The notes under the pieces were generated by a model that had not been told where the DNA came from, made no database searches, and worked only from the letters and a program-made list of their open reading frames with translations. Shown here one piece after another: positions 50,614 through 58,675 of a stretch of DNA of 64,000 bases. The translations under genes were made by a program, and so were the position numbers. The DNA is from an uncultured Chloroflexia bacterium. Lineage in GTDB: Bacteria > Chloroflexota > Limnocylindria > Limnocylindrales > CSP1-4. The first letter of the stretch is position 1; every line of letters starts with the position of its first letter. Where the stretch lies: contig CAWEZH010000003.1 of NCBI GenBank assembly GCA_963813535.1, forward strand, positions 704,001 to 768,000, written 5' to 3'.

Positions 50614-53600
50614 ATGGCGCCCATGCCCGACCGCCCCTCGCTCGGCTCCGTTGACACGGCGCGCGAGCGGTCGATATCGTTCGCGCCTCCCGAACCGCGT
50701 CAAGCATCGAGCCAATTCATCAGCCGTCATCCGGTTCCGGTCGGTCCGGGCCGCGCGGTCGAGGCGACCTCGTCCAGGAGTGCCCACCTGAGCGACGACG
50801 GTAGCGGTTATCCGATCCAGTTCGCGAAGGTGCAGCGTCCCGCACTCCGCGATGAGACGCTCGAGCGCCCCCGGCTCCTCGACTGGCTGCGCGCCAAGGT
50901 CCACGGGAGGGTCGTCCTGATCCTCGCCGACGCGGGTTACGGCAAGACGACCCTCCTCGCCGACTTTTCGCGCCGGACCCGGATGCGCACGCTCTGGTAC
51001 CGGCTCGATCCCGACGATCGCGACTGGGTCACGTTGCTTCACCACCTCGTCGCCGCCGGTCGGGAGCATGACCCGACCTTCGCTCCGGCGACCGCCGCGT
51101 GCCTCGCCGAGGTCGGAACGGCCGGAACGACACGCGAATTCGCGGTCTCGACCTTCGTCGGGGAGCTCCCGACCATCGCCTCGTCGGGAGCCGTGCTGAT
51201 CTTCGACGACTTCCACCTCGTCGACGACGCACCTGACGTGCGCTACATTGCGCGCGAGCTCGTGGCTCGTGCACCCGAGCGCCTCACGATCGCGTTCGCG
51301 AGCAGACGGGCACCGACGGTGCCGCTATCCAGGTTGCGAACCGTGGGTGACGTGGCCGAGCTCGGCACCGACGACCTGCGATTCGACGCCACCGAAACGG
51401 CGCAACTGTTCACCGAGACGTACGGCCGACAGCTGGATCCCGACGTCCTCGAGGACCTCGCCGCGCGGACGGAAGGGTGGATCGCGTCACTCCAACTCGT
51501 GCAGGCGGCACTCCGGGACCGCACGCCGGGCGAGATCCGTCGCTTCGTGCGAACCCTGAACGGAGCGGACCACGACCTCTACGACTACCTGGCAGAGGAG
51601 GTCGTCGGCGACCTCGACGACGAGCTCCAACGGTTCCTGATGGAGACGTCGATCCTCCAGGTCGTGACACCCGAGTTGGCTGAGGTCGTGTCGGGTCGCG
51701 ACGCGGTCGACGTCGCTCGGCTGACGACCGTGGCCGAGCGGCTCACCCTGCTTGGACGGCTGTCTGGCGCTCCGCGGACCCATCAGCGGTATCACCCCCT
51801 GGTCCGCGGCTTCCTCGAGGCAAGACTTCGGTCGACCGACGGTCCCGAGGCGGTCGCAGGGCTTCACCGTCGTGCTGCGGCAGCCGCGGCCGGGACGGAC
51901 TGGAAGGTGGCGGCCCACCACTACCGGGAGGCCGGCGACACCGAGGCGATGCTCGGCGTCGTGGCGGGCGCGATCCCGACGATCATGGGCAATGGACAAT
52001 ACGCCCTCGCCGAGGGCTTCATCGGCCCGATCTCGGCCGACCGCCGCCCGCTGGGCTTCGACCTGATCCTGAGCCGCGTCGACATGCAGCAGGGCGACTA
52101 CGAGGCGGCGATCGCTGCGAGCCAAGCGGTCCTCGACTCGGGCATCACCGACCCAGTCCAACGCGATCACGCACTGCTCAACCTACGTGACACTCGCCAC
52201 CAACTATGGCGACGGTGATCGAGCCATGGCCTTGGCAAAGGAGTTGAGCGCAACTGCTTCTGATCCGAACCTTCGGGCAATTGCAGACGTGTCAGCCCGC
52301 ATCCTGTCGGTCCAAACGGAGAGTGATCTGAGGCGGTTAACAGGCGGTTGAGAACGATGGCCCAGGCGCAACGTGAGACGAGATCGCATCACTTCGGGGT
52401 CACGATGCTCAATCTTGCGCTGAATTCCCTCGTGCAGGACCGCGTCTACGACTCTTTGGCAGAAGCGACTGAAGCCTTGGAGGCATTGGGTTCGACATCG
52501 GGCCTCGTCGAGCAGTCTGCCGCCCGAGTACTCCTCGCATCTATCTGCCTACGACTTGGGCGGCCATGAGGCGGCCGAGAAATACATCGACGAACTCGGA
52601 TATGGCGCGAAGACATACATTCCAAATGAGGCCTTCGCCGATGCGGCTGGCGCATGCGACTCGTACGGATCCCGACTGTTGGCCACGAGATGCCTCGGTC
52701 GAATCGGCGATTCCTCCATTCACACTCGTGCTGACAGGCGAAATCCTGGCAATCACGCGTGCCCGGATGGCCATTCGTAGCCGTGACGCCGCAGCCGCGG
52801 AGCATGAACTCGAGGGGTATCCGGACGGTGTCCCCACCACGGTCGGCGCCATCGCTGAACTTCAACAGGTGCGCGCCCACCTCGGATTGATCGCGCGGCG
52901 ATCCGAGAGCCGGGAGGTTGTTGGAAGAGGCGTCGTCGACGGCCATCGGCCAAGGCGCCACCGCGATGCGCCGCGTGTGTGACCTTCTCATCGCCGCAAG
53001 TCACGGAGCTGAGGAACTATCCAAAGCCTGTGTTGTCATTGGCCAGTCCACGCCGTGGCATCTGAGCTTTGTCGCGGAGGACATCGTCCCGTCCCTCGAG
53101 CAACTGACAGCGGAAGCGCGATTGGTAGTCGAAGGAGCCGCAAACCTACATCGTGAGCGGTGGCGGACCGCGCTGCGGCAAAGCCTTGACTTCGACATAT
53201 CGACCCAATATCGAGGCAGCGCGCTTGTTGGAGCAGGTGGGCGATCGCTCGGATATCTCGCGACTCCGAGGGATCGCGAGGTCGGCGAGAAGGCGGCCCG
53301 ATGCGGCAGGTCTTGGACGACAGTTGTCGCGGCGACTCGCTGACCGCGTGTATGTCGAGGACCAGGGTCGGATTGCGATCGAAATCGGGGGCCGCGCCGT
53401 CCTGGGTTCGACGGTTCGCCGCAAGGTTCTCGCGATGCTGTCGTACCTAATTACCCGCCCTGAACTCTCAGCCACTCGAGATCAAGTACTCGACGCCATG
53501 TGGCCGGAGCTCGACCCGGAGGTCGCGGTCAACTCTCTCAATCAGACGATCTATTTCCTGCGGAGGGTGCTGGAAGAGAATTACTCGGACGACTTGTCGC

Positions 53601-54059
53601 CAGGCTACGTTCACCACGACTCCGACGTGGTGTGGCTCGATGCTGAACTCGTCTCCAGCCGGAGCGTGGAATGCCGGCGAGCTAATTCGGGAGTTTCCGG
53701 CACGGCCGACTCCGGACGACGTGGAGCGGCTCACGCTCCTCTATCGCGGCCGCTTTGCGCTCGACTTCGAGTACGAGGAGTGGGCTGCCGCGTATCGCGA
53801 CAACCTCCACGCGACATACCTAGAGATAGTCGAGAGGTCCGTGCTGGATGACTTCAGATCGGGCCACTACGACCGAGGGATCACGATCGCGCGGCGAGCC
53901 CTCGAGGTCGACCCAAGCGCAGAGCAAATCGAGGCATGCCTGCTTCGTCTGTACCGCGTAACGGGAGCTCATGCGGCGGCCGCGGAGCAGTACGCCCACT
54001 ACGCAGCGGTGATGCGCGAAGAGGTCGGAGTTGAGCCTCCGCCGCTCGAGACCCTATAG
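50614..54059 (+). CDS. Large STAND (MalT-like ATPase)-TPR-wHTH-BTAD transcriptional regulator; several frameshifts in 52185-53680
   Basis: ERPRLL, AGYGKTT Walker A, LIFDDFH Walker B, RTEGW, YLAEEV, RYHPL; C-terminal pieces RRKVLAMLSYL...RDQVLDAMWP..., LYRGRF..DFEYEEWA, EVGVEPP. Confidence 0.8.
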
Positions 54060-54079: not shown

Positions 54080-54109
54080 TTGACCGGTTTACTTAGCCAT
54101 CCCTACAGT
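54080..54109 (+). promoter_or_regulatory. Sigma70-type promoter for the riboswitch-peptide-HD-GYP operon
   Basis: TTGACC (54080-54085), 18 nt, TACAGT (54104-54109). Confidence 0.6.
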
Positions 54110-54153
54110 CCGGGCACTTGCTAGTACCCCAGTACTAGGAAGAAACGTCAAGA

Positions 54154-54227
54154 CGCTCGGACGCGGCGATGTCTCACCTGAAATGGGCACTTAGGGTGAG
54201 GCGGAGCGACTAGTGCAACCGACCGAC
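54154..54227 (+). ncRNA. c-di-GMP-II riboswitch aptamer
   Basis: CTCGGACGCGGCGATGTCTCACCTGAAATGGGCACTTAGGGTGAGGCGGAGCGACTAGTGCAACCGACCGA: conserved AAATGGGCACTT loop, GCACT/AGTGC pseudoknot, GA/GGAG kink-turn, TAGTGCAACCGACC 3' motif. Confidence 0.85.
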
Positions 54228-54246
54228 TTTCAGTCAGGTCGGTTTT
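54217..54246 (+). terminator. Terminator of the riboswitch expression platform
   Basis: AACCGACC-GACT-TTC-AGTC-A-GGTCGGTT-TT; 5' arm overlaps the aptamer 3' strand; short U tract. Confidence 0.6.
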
Positions 54247-54343
54247 CGTGTTCCCCAGAGCACGAAGGCCGCGAAGGAGGAACGCCCGTGGCTCCCGAGT
54301 CCGCCAAGGCCTGGTAGGCGAGTCCCAGCGATGAGGGACCGAA

Positions 54344-54421
54344 TTGGTGCGCATCCTCGTTGCGCTCTCGAGCGTGGCGATGATCGCCCTGGCTGGAGGG
54401 GCTTCTCTTAGAGGCTTCTAG
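54344..54421 (+). CDS. Small signal-peptide-like precursor (L/M)VRILVALSSVAMIALAGGASLRGF; true start probably ATG 54331 or GTG 54288 if indels are errors
   Basis: Open frame 54335-54421; basic residue, hydrophobic core, AGGA, aromatic C-terminus; AAGGAGG SD at 54274-54280; lies between riboswitch and HD-GYP gene. Confidence 0.7.
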   Translation: MVRILVALSSVAMIALAGGASLRGF

Positions 54422-54489
54422 TACTGATGGCCCATTACCTCACTCGCGGCGCTGGCCGTAGAGTGAGGAAAGAGGCCGATCAGGTAACG

Positions 54490-55896
54490 ATGCCCAAGTC
54501 CCTCAAGCTTTACGTCGCAGTTGTCGTGGTCATCGGCGCCTTGGCGCTGGTGGCCGCGACTTTCGTGTTCCCGCCGAAACCCGGCATCGCGATCGATCTG
54601 CCGGGTTCTACTGGCAGCCCGACGACGCCTGAATACGCGCTGGGCGTGCTGTATTGGATCGCGCTCACGCTAATCGGATCTGCATTTCCAGTTCAGCTTC
54701 CCCGGGGCACCCAACAGGCGGTCGGAATCGCCCCGATCATGGGGTCGCTGTTCCTCGGCGGACCCGCGGTGGCCGGCTGGGTGGCTGCGATCGGGACGAC
54801 AGAGCTTCGCGAACTCAGAGGTCGTATTCCCTGGTACGGGACCCTGGCAAATCATGCGGCGCTGGTGCTGCCGGCAATCGTCGCGGGCAGCGTTCGCGAA
54901 GGACTGCTTGTGCTCGGTGCGCGGCGTGGCGTGGGACTTCGCTGTCCGGAATGGTCGCCGCTTTTGTGTTTATCGCCGGGAACCTCGCGCTGGTCTCATC
55001 TGGCACTTGGCCTTCGGACCGGACAGTCACCGAGGGCCGTACTCCTTGGGGACATCCGCGGAATCACAGGCGGGGTTATTGCCCTTGCGCCTCTCTCCTG
55101 GCTAATGACTGTCGTCTATGCCGTCCAGTGGTGGGCCACCGCCCTGTTCGCCGTTCCCCTGTATTCGACCCGGCTGGCGTACGCGCGCTTCATCGAGATG
55201 CGCGAGATGTTCACCCAGACGATCGGTGCGCTCGCCGAGGCCGTCGACAAGCGCGACCCGTTCACGGCCAAGCACAGCCATCGGGTGAAGGAGATCGCGG
55301 TCGACATCGGCCGCGTGATGCACGTGACCGACGCGGAGCTGGAAGCGCTCGAGTGGGGCGGCCTGCTGCACGACGTCGGCAAGATCGGCGTCCCGGATCG
55401 CGTCCTGCTCAAGCAGGAGCGCCTGAACAAGGACGAGCGGATGATCATGAACGCGCACCCGGTCCTCGGTGCGCAGATCATCGCCCCGGTCACGAAGCTC
55501 GCTCCGGAGCTTCCGATCATCCGCCACCACCACGAGTGGTACAACGGCTCGGGCTATCCGGACCGCCTGATCGGCGACGAGATCCCCAAGCTCGCCCGCA
55601 TCCTCCACGTGGCCGACGCATTCGAGGCGATGACCGCCGCCCGCCCCTACCGGATGACCCCGCTGACGGCGGAGCAGGCGCTCGCCGAGCTGCGCAAGTT
55701 CGCCGGCATCCAGTTCGACCCGGTCGTGGTCGACGCCTTCGTCAACACCCACCACGTCGAGGGCGTCCAGGATCCGGGCCGCACCGTCCAGCCGCGGCCG
55801 ATCCCGCTCCTCGGCCAGGCTGCCGCCACCCGGCTGGCCGACCCACCCGCCACCGGCACGATGCCGTCCACCGCCAAGGCACCCGAGCAAGTCTGA
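54490..55896 (+). CDS. Membrane-sensor HD-GYP cyclic-dinucleotide phosphodiesterase
   Basis: About 6-7 N-terminal TMs (probable compensating frameshifts at 54920-55000); DPFTAKHSHRV, LLHDVGKIG, HHHEWYNGSGYP, ADAFEAMT..RPYR. Confidence 0.92.
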   Translation: MPKSLKLYVAVVVVIGALALVAATFVFPPKPGIAIDLPGSTGSPTTPEYALGVLYWIALTLIGSAFPVQLPRGTQQAVGIAPIMGSLFLGGPAVAGWVAAIGTTELRELRGRIPWYGTLANHAALVLPAIVAGSVREGLLVLGARRGVGLRCPEWSPLLCLSPGTSRWSHLALGLRTGQSPRAVLLGDIRGITGGVIALAPLSWLMTVVYAVQWWATALFAVPLYSTRLAYARFIEMREMFTQTIGALAEAVDKRDPFTAKHSHRVKEIAVDIGRVMHVTDAELEALEWGGLLHDVGKIGVPDRVLLKQERLNKDERMIMNAHPVLGAQIIAPVTKLAPELPIIRHHHEWYNGSGYPDRLIGDEIPKLARILHVADAFEAMTAARPYRMTPLTAEQALAELRKFAGIQFDPVVVDAFVNTHHVEGVQDPGRTVQPRPIPLLGQAAATRLADPPATGTMPSTAKAPEQV

Positions 55897-55929
55897 CGAA
55901 GCGGGAGCCCGCTCCAGCATCATGACGCG

Positions 55930-57957
55930 ATGCTGATCGGCGGGATCCTCCTCGGCCTGCTCCTCGGCCTTCTCGCCGGCGGAAGCCTCCGGAACCTCGC
56001 CGAGATCCGGCTCCGCTGGACCGGGCTGCTCGTCGCCGCCGTGGTCATCCGGTTCGCGACCGAAGCCGCGCTCGACGCCCAGATCGGTGCCGTCGAGGCG
56101 CTCCGGCTGCCGCTGCTCGCCAGCGCGTTCGGGATGCTGCTCGTCACGCTCTGGGTCAACCGGTCGTACCCGGGCCTGAGCCTGGCGTTCCTGGGCGTCC
56201 TGGCGAACGCGCTCGTGATCCTCGCGAACGGCGGGTACATGCCGATCTGGGCGCCGGCGCTTGCCGCCGCCGGTCTGACCGAGGCGGACGTCAACCGCGC
56301 GTTCCACACGATCGTCGACGCCGGAGCGTCCGACTTCCTCGGTCGATTGCTGATCCTCGGGGACGTCATCCCGGTGCCGGTCGACGTCATCCGAAACGTC
56401 TACTCGCTTGGCGACCTGTTCCTGACACTCGGCCTCGCATTCTTCCTGTTCGCCGGGGTCGTGCGCGTCCCGTCGGTCATCGAGGAGGAGGAAGACGCGG
56501 AGCTCCGGCGTCGCCTCGCCGCCGAGCAGGCGGGACAGGGGAGTCGATCGGGCCTCGCCCCGGGTCTGGAACGGACCGCGGCGCTCCAGCGGCCGACCGT
56601 GCTCGGCGCCGGCCGTCCGCGGCTGGCCGGACCGAGCGCCAACCCGGTCGCGGAGACGCCACCGCCGCGCGGCGCGATCGCGATCCCGGGGCTCACCCCG
56701 GATGTCCTCGCTCGCCTCCGACGCCATCCGTATGTCCGCCTCGCGCTCAACGGGTCGTTCAGCGCACTGTGGTCCGGCCAGCTGATCTCGTTGTTCGGCG
56801 ACCGGGTCCACCAGGTGGCGATCGCGGCGATCGTGTTCGTCCTGACCGACTCGCCGATCGCGGTCGCCCTGGTGTTCGTCGCGGCGACGCTCCCCAACCT
56901 GGTGTTCGGGCCGATCGCGGGGACCTTCGTCGATCGCTGGGACCACCGCGAGGTCCTGGTCGTGAGCGACATCCTGCGTGCCGCGGTCGTCTTCGTGATG
57001 CCGATCGTAGCCTCGCTGAACATCTGGCTGGTCTATCCGCTCGCGTTCCTCCTGACCACGATCTCGATCTTCTTCCGGCCCGCGCGGGTCGCGATCCTGC
57101 CCCGGCTCGTGCGGGAGGACGAGCTGCTCACCGCGAACTCGGCGCTCTGGATCGGGGAGACGTTGGTGGACGTCATCGGCTTCCCGCTGGCCGGGCTGTT
57201 CGTGGCGCTCGTCGCCGACGCAGTGTCGATCGCGTTCTGGTTCGACGGCGCAACCTACCTCGCCTCGGCGCTCCTGCTGAGCACGCTCATCCCGCGGCCG
57301 GTCCGTACCGAGGCTCCGACTGGTGCGACCGCCGGCGCGACGACGGGCGGGTTCCGTGCGGAACTCATGGAGGGCTGGCGGTTCCTGCGCAACGACGCCG
57401 TGCTGCTCGCGAATACGCTCCAGGCCGTGGTCGCCCAGCTCACGATCGGCGTCCTCTTCGGTCAGACGATCGTCTACGCGGAACGGGTGTTCGGGCCGCA
57501 GGGCTACAACGGGCTCGCCGTCTACGGCTTCATCGAGGGCAGCCAGGGCGCCGGCAACCTCATCGGCGGGTTCGTGATCGGTCTGGTCGGCGCCGGACTG
57601 GCGAAGGGCAAGTTGATCATCGCCGGCTACACGGTCTTCGGCCTGTTGACCACCGCGATGGCGCTGTCAGGCGACCTCGCCGTCGTCCTGGCCATGGCCT
57701 TCGGCATCGGCATCGCCAACATGGTCTTCATCATCCCGAGCCAGACGCTGTTCCAGGAGCGCACACCGGGCAATCTCATCGGCCGGGTCGTGAGCTTCCG
57801 GTTCTCGCTGGTGTCCGGCGCGATGACGCTGTCGATCGGGCTCGGCGGCGTGCTTTCCGAAGCCATCGGCGTGACAACGACCATCGCGGCGTTCGGCATC
57901 GTCACCGCGGTGGCCGGCATCGCCGGCTGGTTCGTGCCGGCAGTCCGCGAAGCGTGA
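55930..57957 (+). CDS. DUF5317-like membrane domain fused to an MFS_3-type exporter
   Basis: N-terminal GGSLRNL, LWVN, NALVILANGGYMP, H, LGDVIP, YSLGD; C-terminal LWSGQLISLFGD, GTFVDRWDHR, Q.RTP..LIGRV MFS motifs in one continuous frame. Confidence 0.82.
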   Translation: MLIGGILLGLLLGLLAGGSLRNLAEIRLRWTGLLVAAVVIRFATEAALDAQIGAVEALRLPLLASAFGMLLVTLWVNRSYPGLSLAFLGVLANALVILANGGYMPIWAPALAAAGLTEADVNRAFHTIVDAGASDFLGRLLILGDVIPVPVDVIRNVYSLGDLFLTLGLAFFLFAGVVRVPSVIEEEEDAELRRRLAAEQAGQGSRSGLAPGLERTAALQRPTVLGAGRPRLAGPSANPVAETPPPRGAIAIPGLTPDVLARLRRHPYVRLALNGSFSALWSGQLISLFGDRVHQVAIAAIVFVLTDSPIAVALVFVAATLPNLVFGPIAGTFVDRWDHREVLVVSDILRAAVVFVMPIVASLNIWLVYPLAFLLTTISIFFRPARVAILPRLVREDELLTANSALWIGETLVDVIGFPLAGLFVALVADAVSIAFWFDGATYLASALLLSTLIPRPVRTEAPTGATAGATTGGFRAELMEGWRFLRNDAVLLANTLQAVVAQLTIGVLFGQTIVYAERVFGPQGYNGLAVYGFIEGSQGAGNLIGGFVIGLVGAGLAKGKLIIAGYTVFGLLTTAMALSGDLAVVLAMAFGIGIANMVFIIPSQTLFQERTPGNLIGRVVSFRFSLVSGAMTLSIGLGGVLSEAIGVTTTIAAFGIVTAVAGIAGWFVPAVREA

Positions 57958-58039: not shown

Positions 58040-58675
58040 GTGACCGAGCCCCGTGACCGCTCGCCCGACGAGCCGCTCGAGCCGACCGATGACGAGGCAC
58101 CCGAGGAGGCCGTCGCGGCCGACGCGCCCGACGATCGGGCGCCGAGCGACGCTAGCGACATCGACGCCGAAACGAGCGACGCCGACGTCGACAAGATCGA
58201 CGACGAGCTGCTCGACGATGCCGAGGCTGACGCCGAGAGCGACGCCATCGAGGTCGACGATTACGAAGCGGCCCTCCGTGAGGTCGCAGGCGAGGCGCCG
58301 CCGGTCGCCGACGCCCCACGGCCGTCGTCCACGAAGCGACGCGGCGAGACGAAGGCACCAGCTCGCGCACCGACACCGTCCGAGGTCGCGGTCCACATCC
58401 GGGAGGACGTCTCGAAGGTGTACGTCCTGGTCGCGGTCGGCGTCTTCGTGCTGATCCTGCTCAACGCCTTGCTCTTCGGAACGGGCGGGTTGCTGCGGCC
58501 GCTACCGACTCCGACACCGAGCGCCAGCGAGAGCCCCAGCGCCAGCCCGGGCGCATCGGCGTCCGGGAGCCCGGGCGCATCCCCGTCGGACAGCGCCGCA
58601 CCGTCGCCGAGCGCCGCCCCGTCGCCCAGCGCAGCACCGTCGCCCAGCGCCGCACCGTCGCCCAGCGCCTCGTAG
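58040..58675 (+). CDS. Acidic single-TM protein with Ser/Pro/Ala C-terminal repeats
   Basis: D/E-rich N-terminus, one TM, (AAPSPS)x4 tail. Confidence 0.75.
   Translation: MTEPRDRSPDEPLEPTDDEAPEEAVAADAPDDRAPSDASDIDAETSDADVDKIDDELLDDAEADAESDAIEVDDYEAALREVAGEAPPVADAPRPSSTKRRGETKAPARAPTPSEVAVHIREDVSKVYVLVAVGVFVLILLNALLFGTGGLLRPLPTPTPSASESPSASPGASASGSPGASPSDSAAPSPSAAPSPSAAPSPSAAPSPSAS
58592..58670 (+). repeat. 18-bp tandem repeat encoding SAAPSP
   Basis: AGCGCCGCACCGTCGCCG-like unit, four copies. Confidence 0.8.

Follow-up and report, generated by a model that had tools for sequence, protein, structure and literature searches.

What does a small, anonymous membrane domain do when it is fused in frame to a transporter and encoded directly behind a phosphodiesterase for cyclic di-GMP (c-di-GMP)? 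This question is raised by a stretch of DNA of 64,000 nucleotides (the window) from an uncultured Chloroflexia bacterium (GTDB lineage Chloroflexota; Limnocylindria; Limnocylindrales; CSP1-4), which corresponds to positions 704,001 to 768,000 of the forward strand of contig CAWEZH010000003.1 in the GenBank assembly GCA_963813535.1. On its plus strand, a single open reading frame (ORF) of 675 codons (55930-57957) encodes a DUF5317 domain in residues 1-180 (55930-56470), followed by a transporter of the major facilitator superfamily (MFS). A preliminary description of this DNA had suggested that the domain is an aspartic protease akin to signal peptidase II (LspA), that it matures a peptide, and that the fusion points to coupled processing and export. 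We observed that a micropeptide, a c-di-GMP enzyme with a MASE9 domain, and DUF5317 form a triad that recurs in at least six phyla. The reading that we favor, at a probability of roughly 0.37, is that DUF5317 acts directly on the micropeptide at the outer face of the membrane, most likely as a putative Asp-dependent peptidase.

A transporter-fused membrane domain with near-invariant polar residues

The in-frame fusion of DUF5317 to an MFS transporter proved to be real and conserved. In the Pfam search, PF17248 (DUF5317) matches residues 25-173 of the encoded protein with 84.2 bits (gathering cut-off 25) and covers positions 1-150 of the 151 in the profile; we delimit the domain as residues 1-179 (55930-56466, plus strand), for which five helices and an outward mini-domain of four strands are predicted. 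A charged and largely disordered linker (residues 180-274; 56467-56751), whose residues 203-253 have predicted local distance difference test (pLDDT) values below 50 in a model of the full-length protein, leads into the transporter domain (56752-57957). There, MFS_1 (80.5 bits; cut-off 33.4) and MFS_3 (78.1 bits; cut-off 27) match residues 275-669 in Pfam, and the NCBIfam model for the DHA3 subfamily, TIGR00900, scores 198.1 bits, which is below its cut-off of 319.6; we therefore speak of a DHA3-like transporter and assign no named exporter. A database search yielded 712 proteins of 371-1182 amino acids at E ≤ 1e-3, and 119 of the 120 that were listed combine PF17248 with an MFS family; the remaining one (481 amino acids) has PF17248 alone.

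Residue conservation was counted after profile alignment of all DUF5317 sequences that we had collected, 401 database proteins and 132 ORFs from genomic loci. Eighty of the loci were retrieved across phyla from species-representative genomes with the pattern ANGGYMP[IA], so that they are biased for this motif and not for the Asp residues; a library search free of the motif bias returned 2535 DUF5317 representatives at E ≤ 1e-3. The Asp conservation on which the protease proposal hinged was found: Asp145 (codon 56362-56364; G-D-V-I-P-V-P) is present in 352 of 354 database proteins and Asp162, in the motif S159-L-G-D162 at the start of helix 5 (56404-56415), in 340 of 340, and each of them occurs in 130 of 130 locus ORFs. 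Equally strict are Ser159 (341/341 and 129/130) and Gly161 (340/340 and 130/130), as well as the motif N93-x6-N100-G-G-Y-M-P at the outer end of helix 4 (56206-56244), with counts of 382/385 database proteins and 129/130 locus ORFs for Asn93, 378/384 and 382/383 database proteins for Asn100 and Gly102, and 378/380 and 130/130 for both Met104 and Pro105. In an alignment of 97 sequences, G17, G18, G89, N93, N100, G102, M104, P105, D145, S159, G161, D162 and G168 are invariant, and the window protein possesses the family-invariant residues N93, N100, G102, M104, P105, D145, S159, G161 and D162. Judged from these alignments, the conservation is far beyond chance.

All of the motifs that had been read from the letters of the window are there (N93...N100-G-G-Y-M-P, H126, L-G-D145-V-I-P-V-P, and V-Y-S-L-G-D162-L-F just before the fifth helix), and 16 residues do separate the two Asp residues; the spacing between the two Asn residues had been given as N-x5-N and is in fact N-x6-N. 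The His is present as H126, but it is not a feature of the family, since it is found in only 277 of 361 database proteins, a sample in which close fusions predominate, and in 38 of 99 ORFs from the loci.

An AlphaFold2 model of the domain built from an alignment of 97 rows (pLDDT 92.6; predicted template-modelling score, pTM, 0.85) contains helices at residues 2-15, 31-49, 59-76, 83-99 and 160-178 and short strands at residues 104-107, 126-129, 145-149 and 156-159. Across the family, the mean number of Lys and Arg residues is 2.9 in loop 16-30, 1.0 in loop 77-82 and 0.27 in loop 50-58, and the segment 100-159 is net acidic. Because of these loop charges, and because the C-terminus must be cytoplasmic to run into the MFS part, the N-terminus and the beta mini-domain with both Asp residues should lie on the extracytoplasmic face of the membrane. 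In the model, D145 opens strand 145-149 and D162 follows strand 156-159; from this hairpin register, the two Asp residues are probably adjacent and flank a beta-hairpin. N93, N100, G-G-x-M-P, D145 and S-x-G-D162 appear to cluster at the outer-leaflet boundary round the small beta-sheet. Since helix 1 is degenerate in a reversed MFS::DUF5317 fusion (locus L044) and the Pfam model begins at residue 25, the core of the domain seems to comprise four helices and to start in the cytoplasm.

Comparison with signal peptidase II

This layout recalls LspA in several respects. Both are small polytopic membrane proteins with two conserved Asp residues 16-18 positions apart, the second of which stands at the start of the last helix at the outer leaflet; conserved Asn residues lie nearby, and there is a candidate substrate in which small residues end a signal-peptide-like helix. 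In contrast, DUF5317 has five helices and carries its beta mini-domain between helices 4 and 5, while the large outward domain of LspA follows helix 1. PF01252 (LspA) has no match in the window protein at E ≤ 0.01 in Pfam, and a Foldseek search of the DUF5317 model against 350,542 PDB chains gave 23 matches (best E 3.2; template-modelling scores of at most 0.33), none of which is LspA, so that the Foldseek check proposed for the LspA-like reading turned out negative. The ESM Atlas held no usable match outside PF17248.

For a profile comparison, we aligned 34 LspA ORF sequences from the LspA locus of the window's own genome and 29 further Chloroflexota loci, with one locus from an unpublished genome left out. 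Between DUF5317 and this profile, hhalign reports a probability of 11.8-17.5% (about 12-18%) over 51-57 columns at a score of 29.4, and it pairs D145 with the Asp of V-x-D-F and D162 with the Asp of F-N-x-A-D; the flanking motifs differ (G-D-x-x-P-x-P and S-x-G-D in DUF5317). As a control, the LspA alignment was shuffled in blocks 115 times and reversed once; three of these 116 nulls attain the score of the native alignment. The profiles of MASE9 and of the A24 prepilin peptidases score 16.2 and 16.9, respectively, versus 29.4 for LspA. As far as these profiles go, the likeness is local to the two-Asp segment and slightly above the nulls, with no sign of a common fold or family. A resemblance to the GxGD proteases (A24; presenilin and signal peptide peptidase) can also be drawn, as S-x-G-D at a helix start is close to G-x-G-D and the putative substrate is signal-peptide-like; however, the A24 (PF01478-type) profile aligns over only 8 columns round S-x-G-D/G-x-G-D, at an hhalign probability of 0.3%.

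Could DUF5317 nevertheless be truly homologous to signal peptidase II (MEROPS A8), as a divergent form that serves in lipoprotein processing? Its two invariant Asp residues would fit this explanation, as they precede the last helix, are spaced much as in LspA, lie on the same side of the membrane and are aligned by hhalign, and so would a peculiarity of the genome's own LspA. The latter is encoded by a separate gene, the only LspA (PF01252) gene of the genome (contig 2, 519915-520328; locus L053), and reads N-M-A-D-Q and F-N-L-A-N where the 33 other Chloroflexota LspA sequences read N-x-x-D-R and F-N-x-A-D; it has Asn for the second catalytic Asp and Gln for the conserved Arg. Yet the Asp of F-N-x-A-D is retained in 13 of 15 readable LspA sequences of the same family, including that of a same-genus genome (one other genome has Asn), and we dropped the idea that DUF5317 replaces a decayed LspA for this reason. 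Moreover, 40 of the 41 Chloroflexota genomes sampled possess LspA, with or without DUF5317 (a tally that includes one unpublished genome), the 47 aligned micropeptides contain no conserved lipobox Cys after G-A, and DUF5317 is found in a context of c-di-GMP signalling rather than of lipoprotein maturation. Taken with the missing PF01252 and Foldseek matches and the different position of the outward domain, these data leave true homology to LspA close to refuted. The near-invariant Asp pair, which is predicted to face outward, does support the LspA-like proposal in part; its alignment with the catalytic residues of LspA is weak.

A micropeptide and c-di-GMP enzymes that travel with DUF5317

The peptide ending in LAGGASLRGF, which had been named as the substrate, exists and belongs to a real and conserved gene family travelling with DUF5317. 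Its gene (54344-54421, plus strand) comprises 25-26 codons from a TTG or GTG start and specifies a hydrophobic helix followed by A-G-G-A-S-L-R-G-F. A pattern consisting of a hydrophobic run, G-A/G, one to three residues and K/R-W, with the class variant G-G-A-S/G-x-K/R, gave 53 matches in 48 of the 80 cross-phylum loci, every one of them on the strand of DUF5317, none in unrelated control loci totalling 103 kb, and exactly one in the entire window, at 54344-54421. Homologues are present in 15 of 20 loci from the same class, and between the window and loci L104 and L108 the amino acids of the peptide are kept while the DNA differs. Across 47 aligned copies, G-A is invariant and followed by x-x-K/R-W; the helix carries Lys and Trp at either end, like single-pass proteins that are anchored at the membrane interface. 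The site of the gene varies: it precedes the MASE9-HD-GYP gene, follows DUF5317 in the arrangement with GGDEF-EAL enzymes, or stands immediately before DUF5317 in cassettes with a cytosolic HD-GYP protein. Tandem, diverged (paralogous) copies are found in four loci (L125, L168, L175 and L177).

The peptide would form a single helix whose invariant G-A and x-x-K/R-W come to lie at the same outer boundary as the polar cluster of DUF5317. The N-terminus of the DUF5317 protein itself had been compared with the peptide end; LLAGGSLRNL is indeed present as residues 13-22, but the likeness is probably due to chance, since the G-G of helix 1 faces the cytoplasm and the G-A of the peptide is predicted to face outward, since the two strings are unlike in other phyla, and since helix 1 is degenerate in the reversed fusion. 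With a membrane-embedded, acidic and Asn-rich site on one side and a conserved Trp 0-3 residues from the peptide end on the other, DUF5317 might instead modify the peptide, for example by attaching a lipid or a prenyl moiety to its conserved Lys or Trp, in the way that ComQ modifies ComX. We hold such a role to be very unlikely: searches of Pfam, NCBIfam and PDB gave no similarity to a transferase family, and the Trp is not invariant, the tail in the window's class ending in G-F or G-W.

Directly upstream of the fusion gene, on the same strand, the window encodes a membrane HD-GYP c-di-GMP phosphodiesterase (54427-55896; HD_5 with 135 bits at residues 269-434; NCBIfam c-di-GMP phosphodiesterase match), whose true start is probably the ATG at 54490. 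Its N-terminal domain is divergent and MASE9-like: Pfam MASE9 was not reported for it at E ≤ 0.01, and phmmer/jackhmmer link it, in iterated searches only, to HD-GYP proteins that carry Pfam MASE9. A membrane HD-GYP gene occupies this upstream position in all 20 same-class fusion loci. In a set of 29 short-flank loci from other Chloroflexota, the 1.5-kb flanks include an HD-GYP ORF in 14, of which 13 share the strand of DUF5317, on either side of it, and one is convergent; a homologous MFS gene ends 4 nt upstream of DUF5317 in four (L022, L026, L027 and L031), and a BTAD regulator is located upstream in nine. Among the 80 cross-phylum loci, which span Chloroflexota, Bacillota (including Carboxydothermus islandicus), Bipolaricaulota, Thermotogae, Thermoleophilia/Actinomycetota and one Neomarinimicrobiota bin, the upstream neighbor of DUF5317 on its own strand encodes an HD-GYP protein in 32, an EAL/GGDEF protein in 23 and a MASE9-HD-GYP-GAF-GGDEF protein in one, that is, a c-di-GMP enzyme in 56. 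Pfam detects MASE9 in HD-GYP partners from L121, L161, L175, L177 and L168, and the N-terminal domains of the GAF-GGDEF-EAL partners align with MASE9. A string in the GGDEF-EAL partners, L-S-G-G-A-P-Q-F-x-K, was considered as a mimic of the peptide and dropped, because the alignment shows it to be the equivalent MASE9 loop.

The window itself contains the triad in its defined form, in which the three genes share a strand and lie within about 2.5 kb (54344-57957). While the link between DUF5317 and the peptide was thus borne out, its dominant c-di-GMP context (a riboswitch, a MASE9-like HD-GYP protein, and GGDEF/EAL enzymes) had been missed. DUF5317 is present in 92 of 301 Chloroflexota genomes scanned (one unpublished genome included) and in 30 of 30 genomes of the window's class, where it mostly forms part of open frames of 612-753 amino acids; the control genomes of Thermus thermophilus and Thermotoga maritima are DUF5317-positive.

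A functional link to MFS transporters is backed by independent arrangements: besides the adjacent MFS genes of other Chloroflexota, there is the reversed fusion MFS::DUF5317 in L044, an HD-GYP::MFS fusion followed by DUF5317 in one genome (L101), and separate MFS genes downstream of DUF5317 in the Thermoleophilia loci L168, L175 and L177. The full-length DUF5317::MFS model reaches a pTM of 0.79 in spite of the disordered linker, which hints at a modelled contact between the two domains. DUF5317 might then be a substrate- or ion-binding accessory of the transporter in a c-di-GMP-controlled export or uptake device, with the HD-GYP protein and the peptide acting only as regulators. The fusion is fixed in the class (712 matches; all 30 class genomes with DUF5317), and the reversed fusion, the separate adjacent MFS genes and the suggested domain contact are also in keeping with such a device; we nevertheless consider it unlikely, as most DUF5317 genes beyond Limnocylindria and Thermoleophilia lack a nearby MFS gene (62 of the 80 loci are without one), and the link to a c-di-GMP enzyme and a peptide is much wider.

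Two further settings of DUF5317 were recorded. The window's own genome contains a second, standalone DUF5317 gene (contig 2, 1731711-1732136; loci L001 and L003), whose neighbors encode DinB-like, glyoxalase and S9 peptidase proteins, with an adenylate/guanylate cyclase ORF, the only gene for nucleotide signalling in this locus, about 1.6 kb upstream. In other Chloroflexota (L088, L089 and L091-L094), a cassette consists of a MalT/AfsR-like regulator of about 1070 amino acids, a micropeptide ending in G-A-P..., DUF5317, an Os1348-family protein of the NHLP clan (about 91 amino acids), and a cytosolic PAS-(GAF)-HD-GYP protein. The Os1348-family assignment was made with NF038399 (one protein above the cut-off, the others at E 1e-6 to 1e-8); of the cytosolic HD-GYP proteins, four are of the PAS type and one is without an N-terminal Pfam domain.

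Probable riboswitch control and the proposed role of DUF5317

The peptide gene of the window is preceded by a c-di-GMP-II riboswitch aptamer (RF01786; 54150-54233, plus strand) that scores 64.4 bits (gathering score 53.5; E 1.6e-13) over positions 1-84 of 84. A terminator-like hairpin with a 9-pair stem and a T run (54221-54244) lies over the 3' end of the aptamer, is also present in the minimum-free-energy fold of 54140-54270, and is probably the expression platform; read from the sequence, aptamer and hairpin would constitute an ON switch. RF01786 precedes the peptide gene in seven of eight related fusion loci tested. In all 12 loci where the peptide follows DUF5317 (L136, L140, L146, L153, L156, L157, L163, L166, L170, L174, L180 and L044), an aptamer of the c-di-GMP-I type stands directly before the peptide; these are of the RF03167 'GGC' variant, with RF01051 in L180 only. 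Within Limnocylindria, both riboswitch classes directly precede the peptide gene in both gene arrangements. No such aptamer was detected at the gathering score in four loci tested from other phyla. Like other c-di-GMP-II and c-di-GMP-I riboswitch operons, the unit has an aptamer passing the Rfam gathering score directly upstream; it differs from them in that the first regulated gene is an unannotated micropeptide and in that two aptamer classes are placed before the same peptide family.

The complete operon-like unit in the window runs from a promoter-like site (TTGACC-18-TACAGT; 54080-54109; a pattern match only, with one hit in a consensus scan versus 0.1 expected in shuffles) through the c-di-GMP-II riboswitch, the peptide gene and the MASE9-like HD-GYP gene to DUF5317::MFS, which is its last long gene. 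Downstream, a syntenic gene (58040-58675, plus strand) encodes a protein with a single hydrophobic segment, an acidic N-terminus and a repeat tail rich in Pro and Ser; 15 of 20 same-class loci have a homologue in this place, and no Pfam or NCBIfam family matches it. Upstream, on the same strand, lies the remnant of a large STAND/TPR/BTAD (MalT/AfsR-like) regulator gene (50614-54059), with a weak AAA_16 match at its front (28.1 bits; cut-off 32.6) and BTAD above its cut-off at the end. With an intact orthologue of 1142 amino acids from L108, tblastn recovers four segments, which fall in frames 2, 2, 3 and 1. The reading frame of the first segment is interrupted by a stop codon at 52216-52218, and residues 649-764 of the orthologue (about 115) are unmatched. 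Intact copies of the regulator are located at the same place in many related loci, and in L104, a 96%-identical relative, it is fragmented too; the G+C content over the broken regulator is 0.62 as compared with about 0.70 around it. Relative to L104 and L108, the window has an insertion of one nucleotide (an extra A) at 54342/54343, which puts the ancestral ATG of the peptide (54331) out of frame; the conserved part of the peptide is still open from TTG 54344 or GTG 54347, and the DUF5317::MFS and HD-GYP frames are intact.

In the mechanism that we propose, DUF5317 would be a new Asp-dependent membrane peptidase, convergent with LspA and not homologous to it. By trimming or clearing the peptide, it would set the form or amount that MASE9, a type of sensor domain for which we know of no signal, senses within the membrane. 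The riboswitch would tie the supply of peptide to c-di-GMP and so close a feedback loop on the phosphodiesterase, and the fused MFS part would move the cleavage product or a related ligand. We prefer a hydrolytic role because a protein that is hydrophobic for the most part keeps five polar residues near-invariant, because the peptide resembles a signal peptide without cargo that has small residues at the right depth, because peptide genes multiply in tandem like precursors, and because the peptide gene remains a neighbor of DUF5317 even in loci without MASE9.

Several observations weigh against a peptidase. Foldseek found in the PDB no protease and no relative of the domain at all, a sequence-profile search of the PDB gave a chance match only (carbamate kinase, E 0.2), and the hhalign signal is weak, all the more since block shuffles may leave the motif block whole. 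By the 700-nt rule, 24 of the 80 loci are without an adjacent c-di-GMP enzyme, some having one downstream; at the second DUF5317 copy, Pfam detected no c-di-GMP gene among nine large ORFs of the 12-kb locus, and no micropeptide was found in that locus. To judge from the aligned sequences, the G-A...K/R-W tail, conserved as it is across phyla, is easier to reconcile with a structural contact than with a secreted signal that diversifies. Nine protein clusters, one of them annotated as a Bipolaricaulota diguanylate cyclase, are fusions of the type DUF5317::PAS-GAF-GGDEF, and an N-terminal membrane module on PAS-GAF-GGDEF is the usual architecture of sensor input rather than of a protease. Finally, the broken regulator and the insertion before the peptide may mean that this copy of the unit is decaying, or they may be assembly indels.

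Another explanation is nearly as likely as cleavage. DUF5317 may be a non-catalytic co-receptor or adaptor, whose outward pocket of Asp and Asn residues binds the peptide tail (e.g., Lys/Arg-Trp), another small ligand, or a cation, the signal then passing within the membrane to MASE9; the peptide would be a small regulatory subunit, like MgrB with PhoQ. This explanation accommodates the use of DUF5317 as the N-terminal membrane module of the cyclases in those nine clusters, its constant pairing with MASE9, a peptide tail that is kept across phyla with Lys/Trp at both helix ends, and a fold that Foldseek does not recognize as protease-like. Binding of ligands within the membrane has, moreover, been proposed in the preprint that defines MASE9 (bioRxiv 10.1101/2021.11.05.467447). 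However, near-invariance of five polar residues and of G-G-x-M-P in about 480 sequences is stricter than in most ligand pockets of sensors, the peptide copies that stand in tandem and diverge resemble precursors more than subunits, and the PAS-HD-GYP cassettes have no MASE9, yet peptide and DUF5317 still adjoin in them. Among the proteins searched, no histidine kinase or other output was fused to DUF5317.

A far-reaching form of the peptidase proposal, which we put forward as doubtful, would make DUF5317 the founder of a new family of membrane Asp peptidases, with a fold not represented in the PDB. At the outer leaflet, it would cut the riboswitch-controlled peptide after G-A, and either the retained helix or the released K/R-W tail of four to seven residues would be the ligand of MASE9; the MFS part of Limnocylindria would export or recover the product, and such a peptide layer on second-messenger control would exist in at least six phyla.

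How does such a gene set compare with known systems? In the Agr system, the AgrD peptide is processed by the membrane peptidase AgrB (Cys/His), and AgrC is a polytopic sensor. As there, a tiny peptide, a would-be processing integral-membrane protein and a polytopic sensor with a cytoplasmic output are encoded in one operon; unlike there, the output is c-di-GMP hydrolysis and not a histidine kinase, the tail is conserved and not hypervariable, and there is no sequence relation. MgrB and SafA are small single-pass regulators of PhoQ, and with them the present system shares a peptide of 25-47 residues that is encoded beside a membrane sensor and probably acts on it; they lack a third conserved, enzyme-like membrane protein and a riboswitch. 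Phosphodiesterases of the MASE9-HD-GYP type include TM1467 of T. maritima, an organism that we found to be DUF5317-positive, and HdgA of Streptomyces venezuelae (bioRxiv 10.1101/2021.11.05.467447), and the gene directly upstream of DUF5317::MFS in the window is of this type. In its available part, that preprint does not mention DUF5317, a small peptide or a riboswitch. The literature that we searched contained no paper on DUF5317 or PF17248, none that joins HD-GYP with NHLP, and none that joins HD-GYP with a riboswitch and a small membrane protein; the gene set of riboswitch, peptide, sensor enzyme and DUF5317 is undescribed in it.

On the evidence of the structural model, DUF5317 does not share the fold of signal peptidase II, and it may be a new peptide-handling enzyme. 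An anonymous domain becomes a testable three-protein hypothesis, with MASE9 as its fixed partner, a peptide that travels with it, and riboswitches of two kinds in one class. If DUF5317 is a peptidase, it would represent a new class of membrane proteases and a new kind of c-di-GMP feedback; if it is a co-receptor, the input side of a widespread phosphodiesterase family would have been identified.

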